Below, piece after piece: positions 4,942 to 57,819 of a stretch of DNA of 64,000 nt. This DNA is from a virus. Lineage: Duplodnaviria; Heunggongvirae; Uroviricota; Caudoviricetes. Numbering within the stretch: position 1 is the first letter of the stretch; every line of letters starts with the position of its first letter. The DNA is taken from the IMG/VR virus record IMGVR_UViG_2675903433_000022; one strand, 5' to 3'. The translations under genes were made by a program, and so were the position numbers. The notes below the pieces were generated by a model that was not told the origin of the DNA, made no database searches, and was given only the letters and a program-made list of their open reading frames with translations.

Positions 4942-5331
4942 ATGCTTTTAATTCAACCTGGGTTCGGTTTAAAGATAAAAAAAGGACATATGTTCGGTTT
5001 CAAAGAATCGAAACGAAAAATTCTGTCCATTAGATTGCCATTTATCACCATTCATTGGTTAAACAGAGAGTCAACCGATTATTGGTATAAATGTGCTCTG
5101 GCCGCATTTAACGACCCTGACTGGTTTATAGAAAACCACCATGCTGTTCGTCAGGCAAAGAGAAAAGCTAATACGACATACATGAAGGCGTATCGGAAGG
5201 CATGGAAAGAACACCGCGATCGATACCAAAAAGACATGGAGAAACTTGAATTGGAAAATATGGATCTAAGAAGGAAGCTCGGTGAAGCACGGCGAGATAT
5301 TGAAGCATATAAACGTCTTGTATCGGAGTGA
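4942..5331 (+). CDS. hypothetical protein
   Basis: Track ORF 129 aa, basic, coiled-coil C-terminus. Confidence 0.5.
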   Translation: MLLIQPGFGLKIKKGHMFGFKESKRKILSIRLPFITIHWLNRESTDYWYKCALAAFNDPDWFIENHHAVRQAKRKANTTYMKAYRKAWKEHRDRYQKDMEKLELENMDLRRKLGEARRDIEAYKRLVSE

Positions 5332-5333
5332 AT

Positions 5334-5468
5334 ATGACTTTACATTGTTTTTTCAAAGGGCATTGCTTTTCACTATACAGAAACAGAAATAATAATGGGG
5401 CATTCTACATATGTAGTAAATGTGGGAGGACAAAATATCTTCCAGATGTCAAATTTGAAGGTCCTTGA
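5334..5468 (+). CDS. possible small Cys-rich (zinc-ribbon-like) peptide, 44 aa
   Basis: ATG 3 bp after the upstream stop; CxxxxxC...CxxC spacing; below the 60-aa track cutoff, read by eye. Confidence 0.3.
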   Translation: MTLHCFFKGHCFSLYRNRNNNGAFYICSKCGRTKYLPDVKFEGP

Positions 5469-5911
5469 ATGTTTGCATTAAATGGGCAATACAGATGATC
5501 ACAACAGACTTTTCTAAATTAAGTGATTTTGAAATTAACAGACGAGTATGTGAGGCTTTAGATATGGAGGAGTATTTCTTCATACCTGATGACGAAGCAG
5601 ATTTCGATTCGGAGATCCCCACTGACGAAAGAGGTCCTGTTTGGCAGACGTCAAAAAGGGATATTAATGGCTTCCGTGCTTCAAACGGAAATTGCTTCAA
5701 TCCTTGCAACAACCCGGCGGACGCAAAGCCCATTATCGTAGAGAACAGAATTGGCATTATTCCTGCGCCAGAAAATGGATTATGGAAGGCAGCGCATAGA
5801 AAGATTGGTAACGATAATACTCCATACCATATGACTCAAAATGTAAATCCACTCCGCGCCGCCATGATTGTCTTTCTGATGATGAAAGAAAGTGAGAGTT
5901 GTACCGATTAA
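5465..5911 (+). CDS. hypothetical protein (start uncertain; alternative ATG at 5495)
   Basis: Track ORF 148 aa, same strand as neighbours. Confidence 0.45.
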   Translation: MNVCIKWAIQMITTDFSKLSDFEINRRVCEALDMEEYFFIPDDEADFDSEIPTDERGPVWQTSKRDINGFRASNGNCFNPCNNPADAKPIIVENRIGIIPAPENGLWKAAHRKIGNDNTPYHMTQNVNPLRAAMIVFLMMKESESCTD

Positions 5912-21430: not shown

Positions 21431-21903
21431 AGATGATAGCTGCTGTTGGCCGTAGCTATGAGATCGGCATAGCGAACGAACTGCCCTGGCGTTGTTCTAC
21501 CGATCTGAAGCTATTTAAGAGACTCACCAAAAACGCCACTGTCGTTATGGGGCGTAAAACGATGGAAAGTCTCAAACGCCCTCTTCCAGAGCGTCATAAC
21601 CTCGTTTTGACGCGCTCTCATGGCTTTGTACCAAATGGATTCTACCCTGCTGGTGTGGATGATGTGTTGCGATTACCAGAGCCTGTGTGGGTGATTGGCG
21701 GGGAACAAATTTACTCGCTATTCATGCCGCATGTTGAAGAGATTTGGCTCTCCCACATCGGCGTTGATGTACCAAACGCCGATGCATTCTTCCCGGCAAG
21801 CATGATGCGTAACTTAGGCTTTGTGCCTGTTGAAACAGCTTATACCCAACGAGCCAGCGAGGAAGAGCCTGGCTTTTCGCAGATCGTATACAGAAGGTCG
21901 TAA
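21427..21903 (+). CDS. folA: dihydrofolate reductase
   Basis: 158 aa; MIAAVG..LPW..DL..FK..T....VVMGRKT.ES..RPLP.R.N.VL.R and VIGG..IY pattern of DHFR. Confidence 0.85.
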   Translation: MKMIAAVGRSYEIGIANELPWRCSTDLKLFKRLTKNATVVMGRKTMESLKRPLPERHNLVLTRSHGFVPNGFYPAGVDDVLRLPEPVWVIGGEQIYSLFMPHVEEIWLSHIGVDVPNADAFFPASMMRNLGFVPVETAYTQRASEEEPGFSQIVYRRS

Positions 21904-22547
21904 TGGATTACCGGATTGGGATCACTGGTGCTCAGGGCAGTGGGAAAACAACCCTGGCTAAATATATCGACAAACATTACGGAATCCCTTACGTGGATGC
22001 TGGTGTCGGAAGTTTGATGAGCCGCCTCGGTGTTCGAGTAGGTGAGTCTATGCCTCTATATGAGCGGCTTCAGATTCAAATGGAAATAGCAAAGCATATA
22101 GAGCTACTTACGCGTGGTGTTGAAGGCTTTGTTATCGATCGCACACCTGCTGATGTTATGGCCTACACGTTGGATTTGGTCGGCCATACCAATGAAGATC
22201 GGTGTATTGAGTTAGCCCTCGATATCGAAAAGTTTTGCCACAAAACTGCTATTTCAAACTTTAACGCCATTGCTGGCTTACGCCCGGGAGTCGCTCTCTC
22301 CGAGCGAGATTACTTGCGTTCACAACGAGCATCATTAGACCGTCTGTATGTCGCTCGTATTGATGCGTTGATGTGCGGGGAACTGACAAAAATTCACCTA
22401 CATCCGCAAAGGGGAGATCTGCAAACCTTCGTCGTTTCCAACCGATATCGCACAGTTGAAGCAAGAGCCAGATCAGTAATGAGAATGCTAGATAACGCAG
22501 TAGAAAAGATAGAAAACCGCTTCTGTGGCCGAGTGACCGTTCATTAG
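21903..22547 (+). CDS. P-loop nucleotide kinase-like protein
   Basis: Walker A GITGAQGSGKTT at the N-terminus; size and position next to DHFR suggest an (d)NMP kinase-like enzyme. Confidence 0.5.
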   Translation: MDYRIGITGAQGSGKTTLAKYIDKHYGIPYVDAGVGSLMSRLGVRVGESMPLYERLQIQMEIAKHIELLTRGVEGFVIDRTPADVMAYTLDLVGHTNEDRCIELALDIEKFCHKTAISNFNAIAGLRPGVALSERDYLRSQRASLDRLYVARIDALMCGELTKIHLHPQRGDLQTFVVSNRYRTVEARARSVMRMLDNAVEKIENRFCGRVTVH

Positions 22548-39079: not shown

Positions 39080-40180
39080 TCACACTGCGCGGAATGCGAT
39101 TTCGCCAGGTATTACTTCACCTTGCCAATACATTTGGGCAGCAACGCGATCTGCGAGGTCACGATAAATAGCCGTAAATTCGCTATCTGGACGACTAATA
39201 ACGGTTGGTGTTCCGTTATCCAGATCTTCACGAAGAGAGATATGAAGTGGCATTTGGCCTAACAACTGCGTGTTGTATTTCTCGGCCAGTTTCTGTGCGC
39301 CACCGGTGCCAAAAATTGGCTCGTGATGACCGCAGTTACTGCAAATATGCATACTCATGTTCTCGACAATACCGAGCACCGGAACCTCGACTTTCTCGAA
39401 CATCACAATGCCTTTTTTCGCATCGATCAACGCGATGTCCTGCGGCGTAGTTACCACAACCGCACCAGTTACAGGAATGTTCTGCGCCAGCGTCAATTGA
39501 ATATCACCAGTGCCCGGCGGCATATCGAGAACGAGATAGTCCAGATCAGGCCATAGAGTTTCCTGCAACATCTGCATTAACGCCTTGCTCGCCATCGGAC
39601 CACGCCACACCATCGCATTGTCGTCAGTTACCAGATAACCAATTGAATTGGTTGCCAGTCCATGAGACATAATCGGTGCCATGTGAGTACCGTCCGGTGA
39701 GGTTGGACGTTGGTTTTCCGCGCCAAGCATGGTTGGAATTGATGGCCCGTAGATATCGGCATCCAAAATACCAACTTTCGCACCTTCAGCAGCCAACGCC
39801 AGTGCCAGGTTTACCGCCGTGGAGGATTTACCAACGCCGCCCTTGCCTGAGCTGACGGCGATAATGTTCTTAACGCCATTAATGCCTGGTTGGTTTTTGA
39901 CGCGCTTAAGCGTGGCAATGTTGTACGACAGCTTCCAGTCGATAGCCTTTGCGCCAGTGATACGGAGCAGATCACCACTACATTGCTCTTTCAGGTCTTC
40001 AAAAGGCTTATTCCACACGAAAGGCATGATTAGTTCGACATGCAGTGTGTCATCCATCAACGCAACATGGTGTAACGCTTTAAGCGTAGTCAGGTTGTGT
40101 TTCAGGGTTGGGTGCTGAAAATTAGCCAGCGTACCGGCTACCATTGCTCTCAGGGCATCCGGCGATTTGGACTCGCTCAT
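39080..40180 (-). CDS. apbC: Fe-S cluster carrier ATPase Mrp/ApbC
   Basis: 366 aa; deviant Walker A SGKGGVGKS; reads as near full-length enterobacterial Mrp by recall. Confidence 0.9.
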   Translation of the reverse strand: MSESKSPDALRAMVAGTLANFQHPTLKHNLTTLKALHHVALMDDTLHVELIMPFVWNKPFEDLKEQCSGDLLRITGAKAIDWKLSYNIATLKRVKNQPGINGVKNIIAVSSGKGGVGKSSTAVNLALALAAEGAKVGILDADIYGPSIPTMLGAENQRPTSPDGTHMAPIMSHGLATNSIGYLVTDDNAMVWRGPMASKALMQMLQETLWPDLDYLVLDMPPGTGDIQLTLAQNIPVTGAVVVTTPQDIALIDAKKGIVMFEKVEVPVLGIVENMSMHICSNCGHHEPIFGTGGAQKLAEKYNTQLLGQMPLHISLREDLDNGTPTVISRPDSEFTAIYRDLADRVAAQMYWQGEVIPGEIAFRAV

Positions 40181-40337
40181 CCCGTCTCCTTTATTTTAAT
40201 TTGCGCAATTGTCGCCTTGTAGTGTACTCCAGCTACGGCATTTAATCATTTATGAGAAATGCTGTTATCACATGGCAGACATAAGGCCATTTTGTTACTA
40301 TCAAGCCCCTTTTCACTACAAAGAAGTAATGCCTACT

Positions 40338-42371
40338 ATGACCCAAGTCGCGAAGAAAATTCTGGTGACGTGCGCGCTGCCGTACGCTAACGGCTCAATC
40401 CACCTCGGCCATATGCTGGAGCACATCCAGGCTGATGTCTGGGTTCGTTACCAGCGAATGCGCGGCCACGAGGTTAATTTCATCTGTGCCGACGATGCCC
40501 ACGGTACGCCGATCATGCTGAAAGCACAGCAGCTTGGTATCACACCGGAGCAGATGATTGGCGAAATGAGTCAGGAACACCAGACTGATTTCGCAGGCTT
40601 TAACATCAGCTATGACAACTATCACTCGACGCACAGCGAAGAGAACCGTCAGTTGTCTGAGCTTATCTATACTCGCCTGAAAGAGAACGGTTTTATTAAA
40701 AATCGTACCATCTCTCAGCTGTACGACCCGGAAAAAGGCATGTTCCTGCCGGACCGTTTTGTAAAAGGCACCTGCCCTAAATGTAAAGCGCCAGATCAAT
40801 ACGGCGATAACTGTGAAGTCTGCGGCGCGACTTACAGCCCGACTGAACTGATCGAGCCGAAATCGGTAGTTTCTGGTGCTACGCCGGTAATGCGTGATTC
40901 CGAACACTTCTTCTTTGATCTGCCTTCTTTCAGCGAAATGTTGCAGGCATGGACCCGCAGCGGTGCGTTGCAGGAGCAGGTGGCAAACAAAATGCAGGAG
41001 TGGTTTGAATCTGGCCTGCAACAGTGGGATATCTCCCGTGACGCACCTTACTTCGGTTTTGAAATTCCGAACGCGCCGGGCAAATATTTCTACGTCTGGC
41101 TGGACGCGCCGATTGGCTACATGGGTTCCTTCAAGAATCTGTGCGACAAGCGCGGTGATACCACCAGCTTCGATGAATACTGGAAGAAAGACTCCACCGC
41201 CGAGCTGTACCACTTCATCGGTAAAGATATTGTTTACTTCCACAGCCTGTTCTGGCCTGCCATGCTGGAAGGCAGCAACTTCCGCAAGCCGACCAACCTG
41301 TTTGTTCATGGCTATGTGACGGTGAACGGCGCAAAGATGTCCAAGTCTCGCGGCACCTTTATTAAAGCCAGCACCTGGCTGAATCATTTTGACGCTGACA
41401 GCCTGCGTTACTACTACACTGCGAAACTCTCTTCGCGCATTGATGATATCGATCTCAACCTGGAGGATTTCGTTCAGCGCGTGAATGCCGATATCGTGAA
41501 CAAAGTGGTTAACCTGGCCTCCCGTAATGCAGGCTTTATCAACAAGCGTTTTGACGGCGTGCTGGCAAGCGAACTGGCTGACCCGCAACTGTACAAAACC
41601 TTTACTGATGCCGCTGAAGTGATTGGTGAAGCATGGGAAAGCCGCGAATTTGGTAAAGCGATTCGTGAAATCATGGCGCTGGCTGATCTGGCTAACCGCT
41701 ATGTCGATGAACAGGCTCCGTGGGTGGTGGCGAAGCAGGAAGGACGCGATGCCGATCTGCAGGCGATTTGCTCTATGGGCATTAACCTGTTCCGCGTGCT
41801 GATGACGTACCTGAAACCGGTACTGCCGAAACTGACTGAACGTGCAGAAGCATTCCTGAATACAGAACTGACCTGGGATGGTATCCAGCAACCGCTGCTG
41901 GGCCATAAAGTGAATCCGTTCAAGGCACTGTATAACCGTATCGATATGAAACAGGTGGAAGCACTGGTGGAAGCATCCAAAGAAGAAGTGAAAGCCACAG
42001 CTGCACCGGTAACTGGCCCACTGGCTGACGACCCGATTCAGGAAACCATCACCTTTGACGACTTCGCCAAAGTTGACCTGCGTGTGGCGCTGATTGAAAA
42101 CGCGGAGTTTGTCGAAGGTTCTGACAAACTGCTTCGCCTGACGCTGGATCTCGGTGGTGAAAAGCGTAATGTCTTCTCAGGCATCCGTTCCGCTTATCCA
42201 GATCCACAGGCACTGATTGGTCGTCACACCATTATGGTGGCTAACCTGGCTCCGCGTAAAATGCGCTTCGGTATCTCTGAAGGCATGGTGATGGCTGCTG
42301 GCCCCGGCGGGAAAGATATCTTCCTGTTAAGCCCGGATGCTGGTGCTAAACCTGGCCACCAGGTTAAGTAA
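40338..42371 (+). CDS. metG: methionyl-tRNA synthetase
   Basis: Track ORF 40209..42371, true start ATG 40338 (MTQVAKKIL); HIGH-type motif [14 protein letters not shown], zinc knuckles CPKC/CEVC and C-terminal tRNA-binding domain. Confidence 0.95.
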
Positions 42372-45408: not shown

Positions 45409-45534
45409 TAATGTGCAAGTGGTAATTAGTCGACCGTACGACAGCCCCGCCATCCTTACGGGGCTTTTTTGTATTGTAAGTACATACTTACGATCATAGA
45501 ATATAAAAATAACCAAGACACTACGGAGAGTGAA

Positions 45535-50919: not shown

Positions 50920-52479
50920 CTAATCTCGTTTCAGAACTCCAAAATCGAATGCTCCATCAATAGGCAATACACCTTCTGCAAAGCCAGGTGTGGTGTCGAT
51001 GATGTGTTTTCGCTCATAAGAGTGAGACAACAGGTATTTGTTGCTAATGTCAATGAAATCAGTGATAAAACACACGTTTGCCTGATTTTTTTTGGCTCGT
51101 AAGCCACGACCGACACGCTGCCTCATTTCAACTTCTGCTTTCCCACCACCAGCAAGAATGACCGCACCAACGCTTGGCACATCAACACCGACATCCAGAA
51201 TAGTCGAGCCTATTAAAACATCTATTTCTCCAGACGCTAAACTGTTCAGCTTTGCTTGCCTTGTCGCCTGGTTAGATTCCCCATAGATGAAGTCAACTCT
51301 AAGGCCGGACTCTTTCATCATTTCCATCAGGATTTGCCCGTGGCGTTTAAGACGAACCAGAGTCATACAATTGAGAGAATGTTGCTTATAGAGCAATGCT
51401 TCGCGAACAATGGCCTCGTTACGTCCCAAATTATACACGATCCCCAACTGATAAGCCTTTTGGTAGGCGGTGCTCATACCAACTCTAAAATTGAGGTGTT
51501 TGTTGGCAAGTTCGGCCTTGATTCTGGCCTCGTCTGGCTTGTAGGCAACTTTATGATAAAGGAAGTACGGCTTTGCCAGAATGCCTCGATCAATCAGGTA
51601 CTTTTCTGTGACTTTAATTTCAATTCGCCCGGCCACCGCCATCAGGCGCATGTTGGCTTCCGTCGAATCCTTCATGAACGGCGTGGCTGTAAGCGCCAGA
51701 CGATAGTCTGCGTTCACACATAATCTGGCGATGTCATAGAAATTTGAGCCTGAAGACTCATGCGCCTCTTCCAGAATAAGAAGAGAGACACTTGAAAGGA
51801 AGCGTTTCACCAACTCCCGACGTTTGAGGTGGTAGCTTTTCTTATCTGGTGTTGCATCGCGTGGTGGTTCTTCGAGGAAACTTGCAAGAGTTTGAACTGT
51901 AGCGACGTTGATATGTCGTGATACCTGGAACTCACCCGAGCCAATGACTCCAACCTTTTGGTCTTTTAACCACGGTTCGCCATTTTCGGCGCGGTAGTCG
52001 ATGGATCTCTGGAAGTTTTCGGCCATTTGAAACATCAGAACAGAGCGGGTTGTTAAAAATAATGTCATTCGACCGATACGTGCAGCTGCTTTGCAGGCAA
52101 CGTTAGATTTCCCGCCACCAGTAGCGATCTGCGCAATCATCATTCCCTCTCGAACCAGTGTTTCCACAGTCTGATCCTGATACGCATAATCAGGATTGTA
52201 TGGGAATGGGTTAACCGCCGGATTTGGTTTACCAAGCGCCGGGGCTTTGTCTTTGCGGATATGAACACATTTGATGCCCGCCTTGTTCAAGTTCGCCGCT
52301 ACAGGCTTGGCAAAGCCAGCAGGGAACGAGTTTTTACTCCAGTTGAACATCGTGCTTGTGCCCTTCCAGTCGCCAGTCTCGACTTCGTAGCTCAACATTT
52401 GCTGCACCAGTTGCTTTACCTTGTCATCTGCGCCAGAAATAAGCGCATTTACTGCGTTAGATACAATCCGAACAGTCAT
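50920..52479 (-). CDS. superfamily 2 helicase (DExH-like)
   Basis: Motif I ATGGGKS, motif II LILEEAH, motif III TATP, motif VI QRVGRGLR. Confidence 0.8.
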   Translation of the reverse strand: MTVRIVSNAVNALISGADDKVKQLVQQMLSYEVETGDWKGTSTMFNWSKNSFPAGFAKPVAANLNKAGIKCVHIRKDKAPALGKPNPAVNPFPYNPDYAYQDQTVETLVREGMMIAQIATGGGKSNVACKAAARIGRMTLFLTTRSVLMFQMAENFQRSIDYRAENGEPWLKDQKVGVIGSGEFQVSRHINVATVQTLASFLEEPPRDATPDKKSYHLKRRELVKRFLSSVSLLILEEAHESSGSNFYDIARLCVNADYRLALTATPFMKDSTEANMRLMAVAGRIEIKVTEKYLIDRGILAKPYFLYHKVAYKPDEARIKAELANKHLNFRVGMSTAYQKAYQLGIVYNLGRNEAIVREALLYKQHSLNCMTLVRLKRHGQILMEMMKESGLRVDFIYGESNQATRQAKLNSLASGEIDVLIGSTILDVGVDVPSVGAVILAGGGKAEVEMRQRVGRGLRAKKNQANVCFITDFIDISNKYLLSHSYERKHIIDTTPGFAEGVLPIDGAFDFGVLKRD

Positions 52480-52543
52480 AAACCTCTTTCCTTAGTGCCT
52501 TTTGTATGTTATTTGGCTATTATAATAAGTAAGTGATTACTTA

Positions 52544-53242
52544 GTGGATTGTAGCAATAAAATGGATGTAAAAATCACGATTTTGCAGGTTGATGTTGCC
52601 AACCTTCGCCCGAATACCTGGAACACCAATTCGGTTGGTGCGCAGAATTTTGAAAAACTGAAAGGTTCTATCGAAAAATTGGGCTTTTTTAAGCCAATTT
52701 TGGCTCGTGAACTTGAAGATGGATTTTTTGAAATCCTCGGCGGCGAACATCGCTGGCGTGCTGCTATTGAGCAAGGAATTTCAACGGTTCCGGTGCTTTC
52801 TGTGGGCAAAATTAGCGATGTCGTAGCTAAACAGATGTCACTGGTGGACAACGAGCGATACGGTGAAGACGACCAAATCGCATTGCAACGCTTCATTGAA
52901 GAAATTCAGTCAGAACTTGACTATCAACTGTCTGAAATCGCCCCGTATGACGACGAAATCTCGATGGTTTTAGCAAAAGAGGCGGCAATCGACCTTGAAG
53001 CACTGGAGGCGTTGTCTCGTGGTAGTGATGAGCCTGTCGATACCGACAAACGAGAGAAAACCGAACGTGTGGGGGCGGAACATCAGACCATGCGCTTCAA
53101 AGTAACTTTCGATGCGTCAGATCGTGTTGCAGAAACCATAAAAAACATCATCAAAGAGCAGGCTATTAACACCGGTAATGAAATGGAGAACGCTGGTGAG
53201 GCTCTGGTGTGGCTGGTCGACTACTACAAGGAGCGTATGTAA
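52544..53242 (+). CDS. ParB-like nuclease domain protein 1 (start may be ATG 52562)
   Basis: ParB N-terminal domain signature ILGGEHRWRAA. Confidence 0.7.
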   Translation: MDCSNKMDVKITILQVDVANLRPNTWNTNSVGAQNFEKLKGSIEKLGFFKPILARELEDGFFEILGGEHRWRAAIEQGISTVPVLSVGKISDVVAKQMSLVDNERYGEDDQIALQRFIEEIQSELDYQLSEIAPYDDEISMVLAKEAAIDLEALEALSRGSDEPVDTDKREKTERVGAEHQTMRFKVTFDASDRVAETIKNIIKEQAINTGNEMENAGEALVWLVDYYKERM

Positions 53243-53910
53243 TGACCAAAAAGTTTGAAATCGTATATCGCGACCCGGCAGATCTTATTCCCTATGAGAT
53301 GAATGCCAAAAAGCATGATGAACAGCAGATCCGAGATCTGGCCGCAGCCATTAAAAAGCGCGGATTTGACCAGCCAATTACGGTCGATAAGAACGACGTA
53401 ATTATTACTGGCCACGGCCGCCGTGAGGCTGCAATTTTTGCTGGACTTGAGCGCGTGCCGGTTATTGTTCGCGATGATCTCAGTGATGACGAGGTTCGTG
53501 CGAAGCGCCTTGAAGATAACCGACTTGCCAGCATTGATTACGATGCAATTAAGCTACAGAAAGAGCTTGAGTCGCTTGTTCTGGACGATATCGAGGTTTT
53601 CGGCTTTGAAGAGCGTGAGTTGAATGTTCTCGTTGGCAGTATGACAGAAGAAATGGACACCGACTCGCTAGTTATCGATCTTGGCGAAGAAACTAAACGA
53701 CAGAAGGATGAACACACCGAGATCAGTCGCGAAGTTGCAGCGGAAGAAGTACGTGTTGTCGACGTATTGGGCTTTAAAACGCTTCCTGCTGGCTCTGCCA
53801 TTGTTGTTGGTGATTTGCTTGCCCACATGGAAGAAATGACGGGAGAGAGCGGGGTAGACGCATTTGTGGCATATGCGGAGAAGATCTCTTCCGGGGAGAT
53901 GGCTGCATGA
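53242..53910 (+). CDS. ParB-like nuclease domain protein 2
   Basis: Track ORF 53209..53910, ATG 53242; signature ITGHGRREAA. Confidence 0.7.
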   Translation: MTKKFEIVYRDPADLIPYEMNAKKHDEQQIRDLAAAIKKRGFDQPITVDKNDVIITGHGRREAAIFAGLERVPVIVRDDLSDDEVRAKRLEDNRLASIDYDAIKLQKELESLVLDDIEVFGFEERELNVLVGSMTEEMDTDSLVIDLGEETKRQKDEHTEISREVAAEEVRVVDVLGFKTLPAGSAIVVGDLLAHMEEMTGESGVDAFVAYAEKISSGEMAA

Positions 53911-54572
53911 GCAAATACATCATCAACGTATCGTTTCAGACTCGCGTAAATAAAACCACGCGCACATTGGAAATCGCTGAGTCGTTCGGGCTTGGCCTGG
54001 ACGAAAAAGAGTGGACGCTTTACGACAATCTGGAGCTGGAAGTGAAGCAGGGCGATGTGGTGTACATCACCGGCCAATCCGGTTCCGGCAAATCCGTTGT
54101 GCTGCGCGAGTTGCAACGACAGATGAAGGATGAAGGGCTGTCTGTAGCCTCCATCGATGATTTTACCTTCGATAATGAGGTTAACGTCATCGATCAGTTG
54201 GGCAAAACGACCAGTGATGCGCTTGGGTTGTTATCTATGGCTGGTCTGAACGATGCATATCTGTTTGTTCGCAAGCCTTCTGAAATGTCAGACGGCCAGA
54301 AATATCGTCTCAAGATTGCCAAACTGATTGAGTCAGGCGCTAAAGTGTGGGCTGCTGACGAGTTCGGCGCTGTTCTCGACCGTGTAACCGCTCAGGTTGT
54401 GGCGTCTAACCTCCAGCGTGCCGCTCGAAAGGTTGGTGCGACGGTAATGGTGGCGACGACTCACGAAGACCTGAAGAACGCGCTGCGCCCGGATATGCAG
54501 ATCACCAAGCACTACAAAGAACGCGTGAAGGTGGAATATCACAATGGTAGTCATGATGAGGTCCATTCATGA
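53907..54572 (+). CDS. ABC-type ATPase domain protein (no transmembrane domain)
   Basis: Walker A GQSGSGKS, signature-like SDGQKYR, Walker B VWAADEFG, H-loop TTHE. Confidence 0.65.
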   Translation: MSKYIINVSFQTRVNKTTRTLEIAESFGLGLDEKEWTLYDNLELEVKQGDVVYITGQSGSGKSVVLRELQRQMKDEGLSVASIDDFTFDNEVNVIDQLGKTTSDALGLLSMAGLNDAYLFVRKPSEMSDGQKYRLKIAKLIESGAKVWAADEFGAVLDRVTAQVVASNLQRAARKVGATVMVATTHEDLKNALRPDMQITKHYKERVKVEYHNGSHDEVHS

Positions 54573-55459
54573 CGGACATCATCATTAAACGCTACCGCCC
54601 TGAAGAGTTTCCGCGTCATCTGGACTTTCTGGAGCGAATGACTGTTACAAAGGGAACTGTAGAGGACTGGCACGCTCTTAAGTCGCTTCACTACAAAACA
54701 GACGGCAAACCTTTCGCGCCAACTTACTATCGCTGCGAACTTGATGACCGTCTGGTGGGCGTCGTGGTTATGGCTTACCCGAAACTACTGTTGGCACCTC
54801 GCCACCGCATGTTTCCTAAGTTGAAACCAACCACTAATACCACCGTGGCTAACCAGTACTGGGGTCGGTACGTGAATAACAACTTTGCGGTGATCAGTCG
54901 CTCAGTTGTGGATACTCAGTATCGTGGCGTAGGCGTCTCTTATCGAATGATTAACCTGGTTAGCAGGATGCATGACCGGCCAATCATTGAGATCCAGTCC
55001 TCGATGAGCAAATACAATCCCTTCGCCATGAAAGCAGGGTTTAAGTTCATCCGCCCTGAGCGACCGAAGAGCTATGAAAGTGCACTGCGTGTATTCCAGC
55101 GCCATTTCCGTTCCGACCCGGGTGATAACGAGGCGATCGTCAAAGAGTTGTTCGCAATGAGCGAGTCTCGTCGTCGCCGTGCACTGCGTGATCTGGTGGC
55201 GGACTACCACAAGAACAGTTCCCTGGCAAAAGCTGGGCGGAATCGTGGCACTACGATTCAGGACATTGCCGACAGTCTGGTGGACGAGGCCAGCATTGTG
55301 AAGCTGCTCAAGGACATTCACAACCTGAGCTTTACGTCTCCGTTGTATGGTGTGTACCGAAACCCTGACTTTGGCCGTCGACTGCCTGACACGCTGCCAC
55401 TGCTGGCATTCGACAAACAACCTTTGGATAAACCGTTAGAAATTGCTTTACCGGCATAA
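54569..55459 (+). CDS. GNAT-like acyltransferase domain protein with C-terminal extension (tentative)
   Basis: Motif A-like VVDTQYRGVGVSYRMINLV and motif B-like NPFAMKAGFKFI. Confidence 0.45.
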   Translation: MTDIIIKRYRPEEFPRHLDFLERMTVTKGTVEDWHALKSLHYKTDGKPFAPTYYRCELDDRLVGVVVMAYPKLLLAPRHRMFPKLKPTTNTTVANQYWGRYVNNNFAVISRSVVDTQYRGVGVSYRMINLVSRMHDRPIIEIQSSMSKYNPFAMKAGFKFIRPERPKSYESALRVFQRHFRSDPGDNEAIVKELFAMSESRRRRALRDLVADYHKNSSLAKAGRNRGTTIQDIADSLVDEASIVKLLKDIHNLSFTSPLYGVYRNPDFGRRLPDTLPLLAFDKQPLDKPLEIALPA

Positions 55460-55468
55460 GGATTTGCC

Positions 55469-55735
55469 ATGACGTTAACCGACAAACAAAAGGACATCAT
55501 CAAAACGCTCAATCTCGGTTATGAGCGAGGTCATCTACTTGATCTGGACGAATTGCTTGAAGTTTTGCCGTACAAGACAACCAAGCAAAGTATCCAGTTC
55601 TCAATTCGCGCTCTGATAAAAAAGGGGCTGGTGGAGAAAGGGCATACGCGCCAACGCAGTGACAATCGCTATCACCGCCGGACTCTTGGGTTAACCACTT
55701 TAGGTCGAGCCAAAGCGAAGTTACTGGTGATGTAA
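55469..55735 (+). CDS. small winged-helix DNA-binding protein (tentative)
   Basis: 88 aa; helix-turn-helix-like segment and basic C-terminus. Confidence 0.4.
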   Translation: MTLTDKQKDIIKTLNLGYERGHLLDLDELLEVLPYKTTKQSIQFSIRALIKKGLVEKGHTRQRSDNRYHRRTLGLTTLGRAKAKLLVM

Positions 55736-55759
55736 TCGGTCTGGGAGCTTATTTAAAGA

Positions 55760-55816
55760 CCTGCTTCTGTATATATAAATAATAAGTAACTTATTAAATA
55801 TATACGGAAGCAGGCT
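55760..55816. repeat. long inverted repeat, copy 2 of 2
   Basis: CCTGCTTCTGTATATAT ... ATATATACGGAAGCAGG, near-identical arms to the element at 25361-25419. Confidence 0.6.
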
Positions 55817-55930
55817 TCGTAAGACATGCCAGACCTAATTAAACACCCCAGAAAACAAGTTGGTTAGCAGATGCAGTAAACAAGTTGTTTTAGAGCGCAT
55901 GGACGCGCTCTGTGTGTTTTAGAGGGATCT

Positions 55931-56563
55931 ATGACGGTCGAAAAAGACGAGGTAAAAACTCGCCTGACACCAGCGGAGTGGGCCGAAGCTGAAGCCAAAT
56001 GGACGTCAGGCGAATATACACTCTCAAAGCTGGAGGAAGAGTACGGCATTCGTCGTGAAACACTCTCCAGACATTTCAAAAAGCGAGGATTAGAGAAAGG
56101 CGCGGACTCTGTTGGGAAGATGGTTCGTGAGTCTCTTAAATCTGACGCAGAGCTTCGCGCTAAAGCCCGTGCGGAAAAGATAGAAGAACGTCGTACACGT
56201 TATGACGGCTGGGCGTATGCGTTGGGGCAGATGGTGATGGTCGAAGTCACTACGGCCAAACGTGAGGGTAAGCCTTTAGGGGCGATTGAGGATTCTCTCA
56301 AGAGCTTACAGAGAGCCAGTAATACCCTTGCAAAATGCTTTGAAGTTTCGTCCAAAGCATTGGGCATGGATCATGCGGAAAATGACGAGGAAGAAATTCC
56401 GAACCTGGTATTTGGTGAGCTTACGCCTTCCCAGGTGGCGAAATTACGTCAGGAAGACGACGAGCCTGAAATCATCGATGACGAATTGCTTGAGACGTTG
56501 GAAGAAGAAGCTCTAAGCGAATTTGATGCGACAGATGATGGAATTGAAGGGGAGGACGAATAA
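55931..56563 (+). CDS. terminase small subunit (putative)
   Basis: 210 aa immediately upstream of and overlapping the large terminase start; acidic C-terminus; call by position. Confidence 0.5.
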   Translation: MTVEKDEVKTRLTPAEWAEAEAKWTSGEYTLSKLEEEYGIRRETLSRHFKKRGLEKGADSVGKMVRESLKSDAELRAKARAEKIEERRTRYDGWAYALGQMVMVEVTTAKREGKPLGAIEDSLKSLQRASNTLAKCFEVSSKALGMDHAENDEEEIPNLVFGELTPSQVAKLRQEDDEPEIIDDELLETLEEEALSEFDATDDGIEGEDE

Positions 56564-57819
56564 TGGCAATCCCGTCCTCGCTCAGTCTTGTGCAACTGCA
56601 TTCTGGACAGATGAAAGTCTTCCAGTCTCCGCATCGATTTAAAGTTGTTTGTGCTGGTCGACGCTGGGGAAAATCCCGGTTGTCGATCTCCACTATTATT
56701 CGTGCGGCGGCAAAGGAAAAAAAGCAAAGAGTCTGGTATGTCGCTCCTACTTACCAGATGGCTCGCCAGATTTTGTGGGACGATCTACAGGAAGTTCTGC
56801 CTCGTAAGTGGGTTAGGAAAAAGAACGACACCACGATGACAATCGTGTTGAAGAACGGTTCGGAGATCGCCCTCAAAGGTGCTGATAAGCCTGACACTCT
56901 GCGCGGCGTAGCGTTGCATTTTGTAGTGCTTGATGAATTTCAGGATATGAAGGCTGACACCTGGTACAAGGTGTTACGACCTACTCTTTCATCGACACGC
57001 GGCGGTGCACTGATCATTGGTACGCCAAAAGGCTTCTCGGAATTTCACAAACTGTGGACTATAGGCCAGAACGTAGAGCTGCAAAGAAAGGGACAGTGGA
57101 AGAGCTGGCAGTTTGTAACTGCCGATTCTCCGTTTGTACCTACGGCGGAAATTGAAGCTGCTAAGAATGATATGGACCCGAAATCGTTCGCTCAGGAGTA
57201 CCTGGCGAGCTTTGAGAACATGTCCGGGCGCGTTTACTACCCGTTCGATCGTAACGTGCATGTAAAACCGCTTCAGTTCAACCCTCGGTTGCCTATATGG
57301 GTAGGGCAGGACTTCAACATTGACCCGATGTCTTCAGTAATTTTGCAACCTCAGCCAAATGGTGAGCTATGGGCAATTGATGAATTGGTGCTCTTTTCCT
57401 CTAACACGGCAGAGGTTTGTGATGAGCTTGAGAGACGCTTCTGGCGCTGGAAATCACAGATAACGGTATTTCCAGATCCGGCAGGTGCTTATCGCCAACA
57501 TGCTCGCGGGGAGTCTGACGTCGACATATTCAAAGAGAAGGGATTCTTACGTGTCGATTATTCGAAAAAGCACCCGCCAATTGCGGATCGTGTTAATGCT
57601 GTTAACCGAATGCTGATGACCGCATCTGGAGATATCCGGTTGTATATCGATCCGAAGTGCAAGCATTTGATTGATTCACTGGAAAAAGTCATCTACAAGC
57701 CTGGAACACGAGATATGGATAAGACAGGTGGCATTGAGCATAGTGCAGACGCATTGGGCTATCCAGTACATCGTAGGTATCCAGTCAAAAACCGTGTTAT
57801 TCTTGGTGGTTCTCGATAG
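56563..57819 (+). CDS. terminase large subunit
   Basis: Terminase-type Walker A VCAGRRWGKS and Walker B VVLDEFQD; C-terminal nuclease-sized domain. Confidence 0.85.
   Translation: MAIPSSLSLVQLHSGQMKVFQSPHRFKVVCAGRRWGKSRLSISTIIRAAAKEKKQRVWYVAPTYQMARQILWDDLQEVLPRKWVRKKNDTTMTIVLKNGSEIALKGADKPDTLRGVALHFVVLDEFQDMKADTWYKVLRPTLSSTRGGALIIGTPKGFSEFHKLWTIGQNVELQRKGQWKSWQFVTADSPFVPTAEIEAAKNDMDPKSFAQEYLASFENMSGRVYYPFDRNVHVKPLQFNPRLPIWVGQDFNIDPMSSVILQPQPNGELWAIDELVLFSSNTAEVCDELERRFWRWKSQITVFPDPAGAYRQHARGESDVDIFKEKGFLRVDYSKKHPPIADRVNAVNRMLMTASGDIRLYIDPKCKHLIDSLEKVIYKPGTRDMDKTGGIEHSADALGYPVHRRYPVKNRVILGGSR

Follow-up and report, generated by a model that had tools for sequence, protein, structure and literature searches.

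A genuine five-gene operon lies 5′ of the DNA-packaging genes in an SSU5-type Escherichia coli phage-plasmid, which we analyzed in a 64,000-nucleotide stretch of DNA (the window). Alignments indicate that its third and fourth genes (g3 and g4) together correspond to a single-chain ABC-GNAT protein, COG2401, that has been split in two. By sequence, this core ATPase and acyltransferase with its ParB-type helpers is part of a gene set, widespread in phages, with a predicted role in acylating DNA bases. We propose that the operon encodes a split-gene ABC-ATPase/GNAT system for ParB-assisted, ATP- and acyl-donor-dependent modification of DNA bases before packaging, a reading that we consider evenly balanced between right and wrong.

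An open reading frame listing recovered 5/5 genes of the operon, all on the + strand, and no other frames were seen within it. We adopted the gene starts annotated in the near-identical phages PhiR41_1 and Cyrano, which open gene 1 at ATG 52562 rather than at GTG 52544 and gene 2 at ATG 53242 rather than at GTG 53209, where the listed frame begins. Genes 1 and 2 encode ParB1 (52562..53242, 226 aa, pI 4.55), a ParB/Srx NTPase-fold protein, and ParB2 (53242..53910, 222 aa, pI 4.53), which has a ParB/Srx fold. They are followed by a soluble ABC nucleotide-binding domain in which the motif set is complete (g3, 53907..54572, 221 aa), a GNAT acyltransferase with a helical domain (g4, 54569..55459, 296 aa) and a winged-helix-like protein (g5, 55469..55735, 88 aa); both g4 and g5 have a strongly basic pI (9.8 and 10.2). 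The stop of gene 1 and the start of gene 2 have base 53242 in common; four nucleotides are shared by g2 and g3 (53907-53910) and four by g3 and g4 (54569-54572), and a 9-nt gap separates g4 from g5. The five genes are far beyond chance reading frames because each has a strong PHROG family (gene 1, phrog_723, E = 2e-79; gene 2, phrog_930, 1e-112; g3, phrog_293, 6e-59; g4, 1e-164; g5, phrog_900, 2e-45) and the block is kept in relatives down to ∼41% protein identity. A UvsW-like SF2 helicase gene with ResIII, DEAD, and Helicase_C matches (50920..52479, − strand) is transcribed divergently from the operon. On the other side, on the + strand, lie a small-terminase-like gene (55931-56563; phrog_867, E = 8e-100) and a large terminase gene (56563-57819; Terminase_6N and terminase PHROGs), annotated as TerS and TerL in Cyrano; the closest solved relative of the latter is the TerL of Thermus phage P74-26 (4zni).

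The g3 protein matched ABC_tran (E = 5.8e-13) and carries Walker A GQSGSGKS (aa 56-63), the signature SDGQK (aa 128-132), Walker B VWAADEFG (aa 147-154), and the H-loop TTHED (aa 184-188). In g4, residues ∼25-165 make up a GNAT acyltransferase domain, which has a motif A of the acyl-CoA type and a confirmed fold, and residues ∼166-296 form a conserved helical domain that ends in YGVYxNPD...LPLxAFDxQ. GNAT motifs A and B were invariant in 45 sequences, down to 41% identity, and the domain is probably catalytic. A profile search with g4 retrieved proteins of 450-500 aa with an N-terminal ABC_tran domain and a g4-like C-terminal domain. g3 aligned motif for motif with the N-terminal 200 aa of these fused homologues, and the motifs of g3 and g4 were all collinear with the fused proteins: g3 corresponds to the N-terminal and g4 to the C-terminal half. 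COG2401 is annotated as an [quoted passage not shown] An ABC transporter identity was rejected; no hydrophobic stretch that could form a membrane helix occurs in any of the five proteins and the partner of g3 is a GNAT domain, and the database labels "ABC transporter" are therefore misnomers.

ParB1 and ParB2 both matched ParB_N (E = 3.3e-13 and 1.3e-8, respectively). In ParB1, the motif GGEHRWRAA at aa 60-68 is box II and VDNERY is box III; G61, R64, and N97 are conserved in 13 homologues, and the best solved relative is Spo0J (1vz0, E = 2.7e-9). An AlphaFold model of ParB1 reached a pLDDT of 74-88 in the N-terminal half and fell below 50 past residue 122. The C-terminus of ParB1 holds a conserved segment of ∼45 aa, which gave chance matches only in a PDB profile search. 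A family profile search detected no HTH in ParB1 or ParB2, and the region of ParB1 that aligns to the Spo0J HTH is acidic. ParB2 carries the motif GHGRREAA at aa 57-64; its ParB part matched phrog_498 "DNA methyltransferase" (E = 1.2e-31) and the protein matched PADLOC MTase_II (E = 2.9e-17). Its nearest likeness is the ParB domain of phage ParB-methyltransferase fusions. The ParB encoded beside the ABC gene in Streptococcus pyogenes prophage 315.4 matched ParB2 at 1e-22 versus ParB1 at 1e-5; the ABC-GNAT partner in distant phages is specifically a ParB2-like ParB. The term "nuclease" for ParB1 and ParB2 is a family label.

The g5 protein gave weak winged-helix matches (Sta1/Lrs14, E = 0.0025-0.004; a CARF-associated wHTH model, E = 4.5e-5; LexA_DNA_bind, E = 0.07), and a phrog_900 gene likewise follows the GNAT gene in phage nickie. 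g5 is a candidate for binding DNA at specific sites, or for regulating the module or the late operon next to it. Much of this architecture had been read correctly in the original prediction, which described five co-directional, tightly packed genes for two ParB_N proteins, a 221-aa soluble ABC ATPase, a GNAT, and a winged-helix protein. The strand, overlaps, and 9-nt gap bear out the layout; every motif that it named in genes 1 to 3 was located, the ATPase has no membrane-type hydrophobic segment, and the domain calls were right, that of the winged helix being weakly supported.

Palindromes flank the operon. Between the helicase gene (−) and gene 1 (+), sequence reading of the divergent control region at 52480..52561 revealed a perfect TATAAT (52521-52526) that overlaps the palindrome TAAGTAA-GTGA-TTACTTA (52526-52543); a consensus promoter scan of 52480..52561 found no full sigma-70 site. 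This region is conserved in an alignment of relatives, and a repeat of it is also present in the downstream intergenic region. A 55-bp inverted repeat at 55760..55814 has 17-bp GC-containing arms (CCTGCTTCTGTATATAT and ATATATACGGAAGCAGG) around an inner palindrome, AATAAGT-A-ACTTATT, and folds with −17.3 kcal/mol (z −7.2); in alignments, its arms are kept across SSU5-like loci to ∼76% g5 identity. Repeat and terminator scans further located, at 55849..55912 on the + strand, a direct repeat with the palindrome AAACAAGTTGTTT; a GC hairpin (GAGCGC-N6-GCGCTC) and a U-run come next, directly 5′ of the ribosome-binding site of the small-terminase-like gene. The terminator-like site spans 55891-55912, and its hairpin shows compensatory changes in 3/6 stem pairs among 11 relatives. 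The whole element looks like a terminator or attenuator between the module and the packaging operon.

We found the same operon in relatives, including strictly lytic ones (Pseudomonas phage nickie and phages of Rhizobium and Stenotrophomonas). The five-gene block is a conserved core of the SSU5/nickie/Rhizobium phage group, and the UvsW-like helicase gene adjoins it throughout. The fused ABC-GNAT protein occurs in archaeal, planctomycete, actinobacterial, spirochaete, and streptococcal viruses, and its gene usually adjoins a ParB gene and a large terminase gene. In Gordonia phage Axumite the genes for ParB, ABC/GNAT, a formyltransferase, and terminase all overlap, and a ParB also accompanies ABC-GNAT in Leptospira LE4, S. 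pyogenes 315.4, and planctomycete prophages; the partnership recurs in unrelated phages. Other neighbors of the ABC-GNAT gene are an ASCH gene in 315.4, an N6-methylase gene in L208, and, directly 3′ in two unrelated phages, a Formyl_trans_N gene that encodes the N-domain only, without the tRNA-binding C-domain. In Rhizobium phages a DUF2829 gene is inserted within the operon; we take DUF2829 to be the Tad2 anti-Thoeris family. Relatives carry tRNA genes and a MetRS gene.

The original prediction did not recognize the gene combination as a described system. This part of it does not stand, because the core ABC-GNAT pair exists as COG2401 and had already been singled out by Iyer et al. 2021 as a predicted DNA-nucleobase acylation system (PMC7824862, citing NAR 2013 41:7635); overall, the earlier interpretation is partly supported. 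The proposal is purely computational, and its example is Tenacibaculum phage pT24 (PMC7824862). The pT24 ABC protein gp038 was matched by g3 (E = 6.7e-15) and, over residues 50-315, beyond the ABC part, by the fused homologue P0158 (E = 6e-15); g4 did not match gp037, which is adjacent to gp038. The window proteins thus belong to the same family as the COG2401/pT24 system and share its phage setting and the ABC and GNAT motifs of the fused proteins. They differ in that two genes, coupled in translation, encode the enzyme, and in that this pair is part of a fixed set of five that includes two ParB paralogues and a winged-helix gene and lies beside the terminase genes of a phage-plasmid.

Other known systems combine some of these elements. 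Phage ParB homologues that lack a DNA-binding domain and consist of an NTP-binding and a C-terminal domain are obligate activators of post-replicative thymine dioxygenases (PMC13229309). These 5mYOX systems (PNAS 2026, PMC13229309) likewise place a ParB without a DNA-binding domain beside a DNA-modifying enzyme, often near terminase, and the window ParBs have the N-terminal NTP-binding domain with GxxR and (D/E)N motifs, as expected of ParBs of the 5mYOX type. However, 5mYOX is an Fe/2-oxoglutarate dioxygenase with one ParB, whereas the window operon encodes a predicted ABC-GNAT acyltransferase and two ParB paralogues. Mom of phage Mu represents the only GNAT family for which DNA acylation has been demonstrated by experiment; with Gly-tRNA as donor, it glycylates N6-adenine in dsDNA (Nat Commun 2026, PMC13219725). 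A Mom homologue was the top match for g4 among viral models, yet the structural likeness was no better than to dozens of GNATs acting on proteins or small molecules. Membership of g4 in the Mom family was rejected, as it had no Pfam or PDB sequence match to Mom. Mom works alone, with neither an ATPase nor a ParB; g4 retains the R-x-x-G-x-G/A motif of the acyl-CoA type and carries an additional helical domain at its C-terminus. TmcA and NAT10 are ATPase-coupled GNATs that make N4-acetylcytidine in RNA. The Mom paper cites TmcA as a precedent for aromatic-amine acylation (PMC13219725). Their logic resembles that proposed for the window enzyme, in that an NTPase module is coupled to a GNAT that uses acetyl-CoA to acylate the aromatic amine of a nucleobase, but the likeness is no more than an analogy: their ATPase belongs to the helicase-type P-loop ATPases and not to the ABC proteins, the substrate is tRNA or rRNA, and the proteins are non-homologous outside the GNAT fold. 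Finally, DndB, DpdB, and the ParB-methyltransferase fusions also tie a ParB/Srx domain to a DNA-modifying enzyme but have other catalytic partners, and the operon contains no Dnd, Dpd, or methylase domain.

In the mechanism that we favor, ParB-assisted DNA-base acylation, the operon would be expressed in the lytic cycle and act on replicated phage DNA prior to packaging. g3 and g4, which are one polypeptide in most relatives, would form one enzyme. Upon ATP binding, two ABC domains would close as a dimer on DNA and present a base to the basic GNAT domain, which would move an acyl group onto an exocyclic amine of the base. The donor would probably be an acyl-CoA, given that g4 retains the R-x-x-G-x-G/A motif; alternatively, it could be an aminoacyl-tRNA, as with Mom. 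On the exocyclic N6 of adenine, acyl groups are reportedly unstable (PMC13219725), and a simple acetyl mark may therefore not persist. The acidic, HTH-less ParB1 and ParB2, possibly as a heterodimer, might serve as activator, clamp, or loader, in the manner of the ParB-dependent thymine dioxygenases. NTP-site residues are dispensable in the latter systems (PMC13229309), so the conserved ParB motifs are not proof of a CTP-clamp mechanism. The winged-helix protein may recognize sites, or may regulate both the module and the adjacent late operon via the flanking palindromes. DNA modified in this way would withstand nucleases of the host. The position beside terminase fits DNA modification, since terminase genes count among the commonest neighbors of proven phage DNA-modification genes (terminase 19%, ParB 27%; PMC13229309). 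The original prediction had put DNA modification or anti-defence first among its options, and a role in DNA modification or anti-restriction is the reading best supported by gene neighborhoods and the literature.

The linkage to terminase could also mean that the ABC-GNAT and ParB proteins are packaging accessories, which would work with terminase to acetylate terminase, portal, or DNA-bound host proteins (HU/Alba-type chromatin), or to mark or clear the concatemer for the motor. We judged this unlikely. A large terminase gene adjoins the ABC-GNAT gene (≤300 nt, same strand) at 54/110 distant loci, often with overlapping stop and start, and lies within 3 kb at 68/110, although the 80 viral loci are close relatives, which makes the counts non-independent. 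The genes stay adjacent in three different orders (TerS-TerL-ABC/GNAT in archaeal-type viral contigs, ABC-GNAT-ParB-TerS-TerL in planctomycete prophages, and ParB-ParB-ABC-GNAT-wHTH-TerS-TerL in the window), and the block is a conserved core of its phage group. However, such adjacency is also typical of genuine DNA-modification genes (PMC13229309). Moreover, some members occur in replication contexts or fused to a family-B DNA polymerase, and in phiE255 the gene follows tail-fibre genes with no terminase gene near in the stretch read. The GNAT part looks degraded in S. pyogenes prophages, which is unexpected for an essential packaging factor, and a conserved terminator-like hairpin separates the window module from the terminase operon.

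Acylation might instead target a host protein, as phiKMV Rac does RNA polymerase, or RNA, as TmcA does the cytidine of tRNA-Met, in a host take-over or anti-defence function; this is distinctly unlikely in our view. GNAT substrates are overwhelmingly proteins, small molecules, or RNA (PMC7824862), the ATPase-plus-GNAT logic parallels TmcA, and the formyltransferase neighbors recall Met-tRNA formyltransferase; the tRNA and MetRS genes of relatives and the DUF2829 gene of the Rhizobium phages would also suit this explanation. Yet the constancy of the ParB partner and a setting in DNA metabolism (terminase, polymerase fusions, methylases) indicate DNA, the formyltransferases lack the domain that binds tRNA, and no sequence-level similarity to TmcA, Rac, or GNAT toxins was detected. 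A plasmid partition or transcription-silencing ParB system for the prophage-plasmid state is hardly credible, even though there are two ParB_N proteins, ParB1 aligns with Spo0J, Noc, and ParB structures, palindromes flank the operon, and Cyrano is a low-copy plasmid (5.5 copies; PMC9928086). The original prediction had doubted a simple partition locus and had seen no ParA; indeed, the frames around the operon include none, and the ParA of Cyrano lies elsewhere, ∼29 kb into the record, with a small partner, CYRAN_29. This partner is expressed in the lysogen, whereas the operon genes are missing from the list of lysogeny-expressed genes (PMC9928086). The occurrence in strictly lytic phages, the acidic ParBs (pI ∼4.5) with no detected HTH, and the translational coupling to an ATPase and an acyltransferase likewise argue against partition.

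Returning to DNA acylation, we tentatively suggest, with less confidence than for the window operon itself, that SSU5-type phage-plasmids of E. coli, Klebsiella, Salmonella, and Yersinia, together with many unrelated bacterial and archaeal viruses, carry an unseen post-replicative DNA hypermodification made by an ATP-driven ABC-GNAT that needs a ParB1/ParB2 clamp. We found no report in the literature of a modified base in SSU5-like phages or plasmids. The modification could involve novel chemistry, in which an exocyclic amine receives an N-acyl or aminoacyl group that is formylated in turn where phages add a formyltransferase. If true, the enzyme would be the first DNA acyltransferase to depend on ATP, and ParB-fold proteins would license DNA-modifying enzymes in a second, independent instance.

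A GNAT toxin of the TacT/AtaT/KacT type was rejected for g4, which has 296 aa versus ∼160-175 aa and is coupled to an ABC domain. g4 matched no toxin-antitoxin or defence model, and the operon matched none of the PADLOC system models. A KacT pair encoded elsewhere in the element is expressed in the Cyrano lysogen (PMC9928086).

The block 52400-56600 shares 99.6% identity with the E. coli plasmid pAVS0968-B and 98-99% with the phages PhiR41_1, CMS-2020a and Cyrano; with Salmonella phage SSU5 the figure is 85%. It also has matches in 792 PLSDB plasmids, whose sources include Klebsiella, Escherichia, Enterobacter, Yersinia and Salmonella. The window is a phage-plasmid of the SSU5 type. The stretch 52544-55735 is filled by five ORFs, all on the + strand, which confirms the five-gene operon of the original prediction. 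We adopted the gene starts annotated in PhiR41_1 and Cyrano, which place g1 (ParB1) at 52562-53242, g2 (ParB2) at 53242-53910, g3 (ABC ATPase) at 53907-54572, g4 (GNAT) at 54569-55459 and g5 (winged-helix-like protein) at 55469-55735. Genes g1 and g2 overlap by one base, the pairs g2/g3 and g3/g4 by 4 nt each, and 9 nt lie between g4 and g5. Upstream lies a divergent UvsW-like helicase gene (50920-52479). Downstream, a 195-nt spacer leads to a small-terminase-like (TerS-like) gene starting at 55931, followed by the large terminase (TerL, start 56563) and portal (start 57846) genes.

We searched 1.84 billion representatives with a g4 profile and found 897 relatives. Outside the SSU5-like group, most are proteins of 450-500 aa with an ABC domain at the N-terminus and a g4-like domain at the C-terminus, and in 30 such fused homologues the motifs line up one by one with those of g3, itself a complete and soluble ABC nucleotide-binding domain, and then with those of g4. 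Because most distant relatives of g4 are such single chains, homology argues that g3 and g4 form one enzyme. Several sources name the fused protein [quoted passage not shown] (MK0520/COG2401). MAGs of Bathyarchaeia and Nitrososphaeria carry the fused gene, as do Planctomycetota, Alcaligenaceae and at least 565 IMG/VR stretches. In databases, g3 and g4 are widely labeled "ABC transporter (ATP-binding subunit)", and ParB2 homologues "DNA methyltransferase" or "DNA modification methylase". These are family-naming artefacts, since there is neither a permease nor a methylase domain; the analysis corrects both kinds of label, as well as that of "partition protein".

Unusual architectures were also seen. 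Among the ABC-GNAT homologues P0165, P0176, P0205 and P0155, some carry a LAGLIDADG intein inside the ABC domain and others a family-B DNA polymerase fusion or a terminal TFIIB repeat; such architectures may be genuine or may stem from errors in gene calling. In two rare E. coli variants, P0027 (301 aa) and P0030 (257 aa), ParB_N or ABC_tran is joined directly to a partial GNAT. They are 98-99% identical to g4 across 57-67% of its length and are probably internal operon deletions in individual plasmids.

Both g1 (E 3e-13) and g2 (E 1e-8) have a ParB_N domain, with box II reading GGEHRWRAA in g1 and GHGRREAA in g2 and a (D/E)N box III in both. The nearest solved structures are Spo0J, ParB and Noc. 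Both proteins are acidic (pI 4.5), and no HTH domain was detected in either. They share a conserved C-terminal segment of ~45 aa. A ribbon-helix-helix had been considered for this segment; a profile search against PDB sequences gave chance matches only, and AlphaFold, given a shallow alignment, modelled it unreliably. A search for ParB1 homologues yielded solely proteins of ~85% or higher identity and did not increase the alignment depth. A survey of the ParB-CTPase fold describes numerous phage ParBs that are orphans, as well as fusions with methylases and acetyltransferases.

We called ORFs in 110 distant loci (30 genome-derived, 80 viral contigs) and searched them with iterated HMMs. A TerL gene lay on the same strand within 300 nt in 54 of the 110 loci and within 3 kb in 68. 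ParB was found within 3 kb of ABC-GNAT in 9 of the 110, all among the 30 genome-derived loci. Archaeal-type contigs have the order Myb-like HTH, TerL, ABC-GNAT; planctomycete prophages have ABC, GNAT, ParB, HTH protein and TerL, tightly abutting. Gordonia phage Axumite encodes ParB (gp1), ABC/GNAT (gp2), Formyl_trans_N (gp3) and terminase (gp4), and Leptospira LE4 has ParB, ABC/GNAT, three small genes and TerL. In S. pyogenes 315.4 the order is ParB, ABC, a GNAT remnant, ASCH, a gene x and TerL, and in Burkholderia phiE255 ABC/GNAT and Formyl_trans_N follow the tail-fibre genes. The streptococcal ParB is of the ParB2 type specifically, matching ParB2 at E 1e-22 and ParB1 at 1e-5. Judged from these neighbourhoods and this match, the conserved core is ABC-GNAT, as a rule accompanied by a ParB2-type protein and found next to the terminase, and the SSU5/nickie lineage has added ParB1 and the winged-helix protein. 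The latter, g5, is a basic protein of 88 aa with weak winged-helix matches, whose PHROG family (900) is also present after the GNAT gene in phage nickie.

In two unrelated phages, the Formyl_trans_N gene overlaps the end of the ABC-GNAT gene (Axumite gp3, 1805-2452 of locus L231; phiE255 gp30, 5044-5658 of locus L234), which suggests a two-step modification pathway in these lineages. The two proteins are similar (E 1e-44), and gp3 is annotated as a "tRNA-methyltransferase". Neither a formyltransferase nor an ASCH partner was found in the window or in any SSU5-like locus. In Rhizobium phage RHph_N1_15 a DUF2829 gene, of what we take to be the family of the anti-Thoeris protein Tad2, sits between the ABC and GNAT genes (5043-5345 of locus L228). 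The operon may be an insertion spot for anti-defence genes.

What does the module do? ABC-coupled GNAT systems have been predicted computationally by Iyer et al. to acylate DNA nucleobases, with Tenacibaculum phage pT24 as an example (PMC7824862), and in sequence searches the pT24 genes belong to the same family as the module. In other systems, the GNAT Mom uses Gly-tRNA to attach glycine to the N6 of adenine in dsDNA (PMC13219725), and phage ParB homologues that have NTP-binding and C-terminal domains but lack a DNA-binding one were shown by experiment to be needed to activate thymine dioxygenases acting after replication; genes of that type have ParBs (27%) and terminases (19%) among their commonest neighbours (PMC13229309). 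In our proposal, g3 and g4 together make up a DNA acyltransferase gated by ATP. ATP would drive the ABC domains to dimerise and so position the basic GNAT domains on DNA, and an acyl group would pass to the exocyclic amine of a base, with acyl-CoA as the donor by a motif-A argument. ParB2, probably together with ParB1, would activate or tether the enzyme, and g5 would bind the flanking palindromes as a specificity factor or regulator. Modification would take place in the lytic cycle, before packaging, and protect the DNA. Anatomy, homology and linkage are what the data establish, and from them we infer all the biochemical steps; as a whole, the mechanism stands at about even chances.

Other roles were weighed. 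The very tight linkage to the terminase genes leaves some room for a direct part in packaging, which we consider unlikely, and a host take-over by acylation of protein or RNA seems rather improbable. Among defence-system and NCBIfam models, none matched the module as a system. In Cyrano a second gene is labeled "ABC transporter" (window 21903-22547), but its product is a P-loop protein resembling thymidylate kinase and has no relationship to g3; the thymidylate synthase (376 aa) looks ordinary. The window therefore shows no sign of a hydroxymethyl-pyrimidine pathway feeding the GNAT.

A role in partition, which the original prediction held to be unlikely for want of a ParA-type ATPase and an obvious parS, is extremely improbable. 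The order helicase (-), ParB, ParB, ABC, GNAT, small protein, TerS-like, TerL, portal recurs at ~41% identity, sometimes with small genes inserted, in a metagenomic contig and in the lytic siphoviruses Pseudomonas nickie/Nican01 and Rhizobium RHph_N1_15; Stenotrophomonas ANB28/BUCTxx99 and Xanthomonas JGB6 likewise have matches to the g4 protein. Cyrano encodes ParA and a small partner elsewhere in its genome. The genes listed as expressed in the transcriptome of the LF82 lysogen include that partner (CYRAN_29) but not CYRAN_119-123, the operon studied here (PMC9928086). Thus, the operon is not a partition locus. The same prediction took the gene combination to be undescribed, and this part does not stand: the module had already been noticed as a predicted system. 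On the whole, the interpretation offered by the prediction is upheld in part. In the literature searched, it is not linked to SSU5-like elements, and COG2401 is not mentioned.

By these comparisons, the module is a new, split and elaborated member of a predicted, experimentally untouched phage DNA-modification system. That it is conserved and already noticed is its ordinary side; its interest is that the family spans bacterial and archaeal viruses and that the E. coli version is directly testable. If the proposal is true, a very common clinical Enterobacterales phage-plasmid family chemically marks its virion DNA with a mark nobody has measured, with effects on host range, restriction evasion and the spread of resistance genes on these elements. 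The ABC ATPase plus GNAT enzyme type has no characterised member, and its substrate and product would define a new reaction class. Among the members, the one from E. coli is probably the easiest to work with because it is inducible, PhiR41_1 grows in K-12 and the components are already separate genes; the contributions of the ATPase, the GNAT, each ParB and the winged-helix protein are therefore testable singly.

We also examined candidate control elements. A TATAAT and a TAAGTAA-N4-TTACTTA palindrome lie upstream of g1, and a close relative of this sequence sits within a near-perfect 55-bp inverted repeat after g5 (55760-55814), in the module-terminase spacer. This repeat is conserved across SSU5-like loci, and its single strand has a folding energy of -17.3 kcal/mol (z -7.2); it could serve as an operator or a bidirectional terminator, or as a site related to the terminase or to replication. 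The 8-mer ATAAGTAA occurs 9 times in the window (1.65 expected; 0 of 100 shuffles reached 9), at 2141, 2378, 6645, 10491, 19889, 52525, 55782, 59335 and 59420, with copies upstream of g1 and in the pre-terminase spacer. It often falls within ATAAGT-N(1-8)-ACTTAT palindromes of variable spacing, and at 45477 a TAAGTA-CA-TACTTA palindrome takes its place. ATAAGTAA may be a phage-specific promoter or operator motif. At 55849-55912, the direct repeat CAGAAAACAAGTTGGTT / CAGTAAACAAGTTGTTT contains the palindrome AAACAAGTTGTTT and is followed by a GC hairpin and U-run directly upstream of the TerS-like ribosome-binding site. Compensatory changes affect 3 of the 6 base pairs of the hairpin stem among relatives; the region resembles an attenuator, or a control of the antitermination type, for the late operon. 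Because the AAACAAGTTGTTT palindrome and the hairpin/U-run precede the TerS-like start, the arrangement suggests that module and packaging genes form two transcription units, separate but co-regulated.

We considered and rejected physical genome ends beside the module. The SSU5 and Cyrano records stop at ~55796 (window coordinates), inside the big palindrome, and 25 of the 80 viral contigs end within 300 nt after the ABC-GNAT gene (0 of 80 before it). Contig ends were discarded as evidence: 15 of 20 gene-end contigs finish exactly on the stop codon, indicating provirus trimming. So were record ends, as record starts are conventions (that of Nican01 begins at TerL); the "DTR (long)" typing of Nican01 gives no position.

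Elsewhere in the window, two ORFs at 39080-42371 are collinear with genes that pAVS0968-B has annotated as apbC (iron-sulfur carrier) and metG (methionyl-tRNA synthetase), and the phage-plasmid apparently took them from a host. The GC content rises there (0.49-0.50), and the GC skew inverts just downstream.
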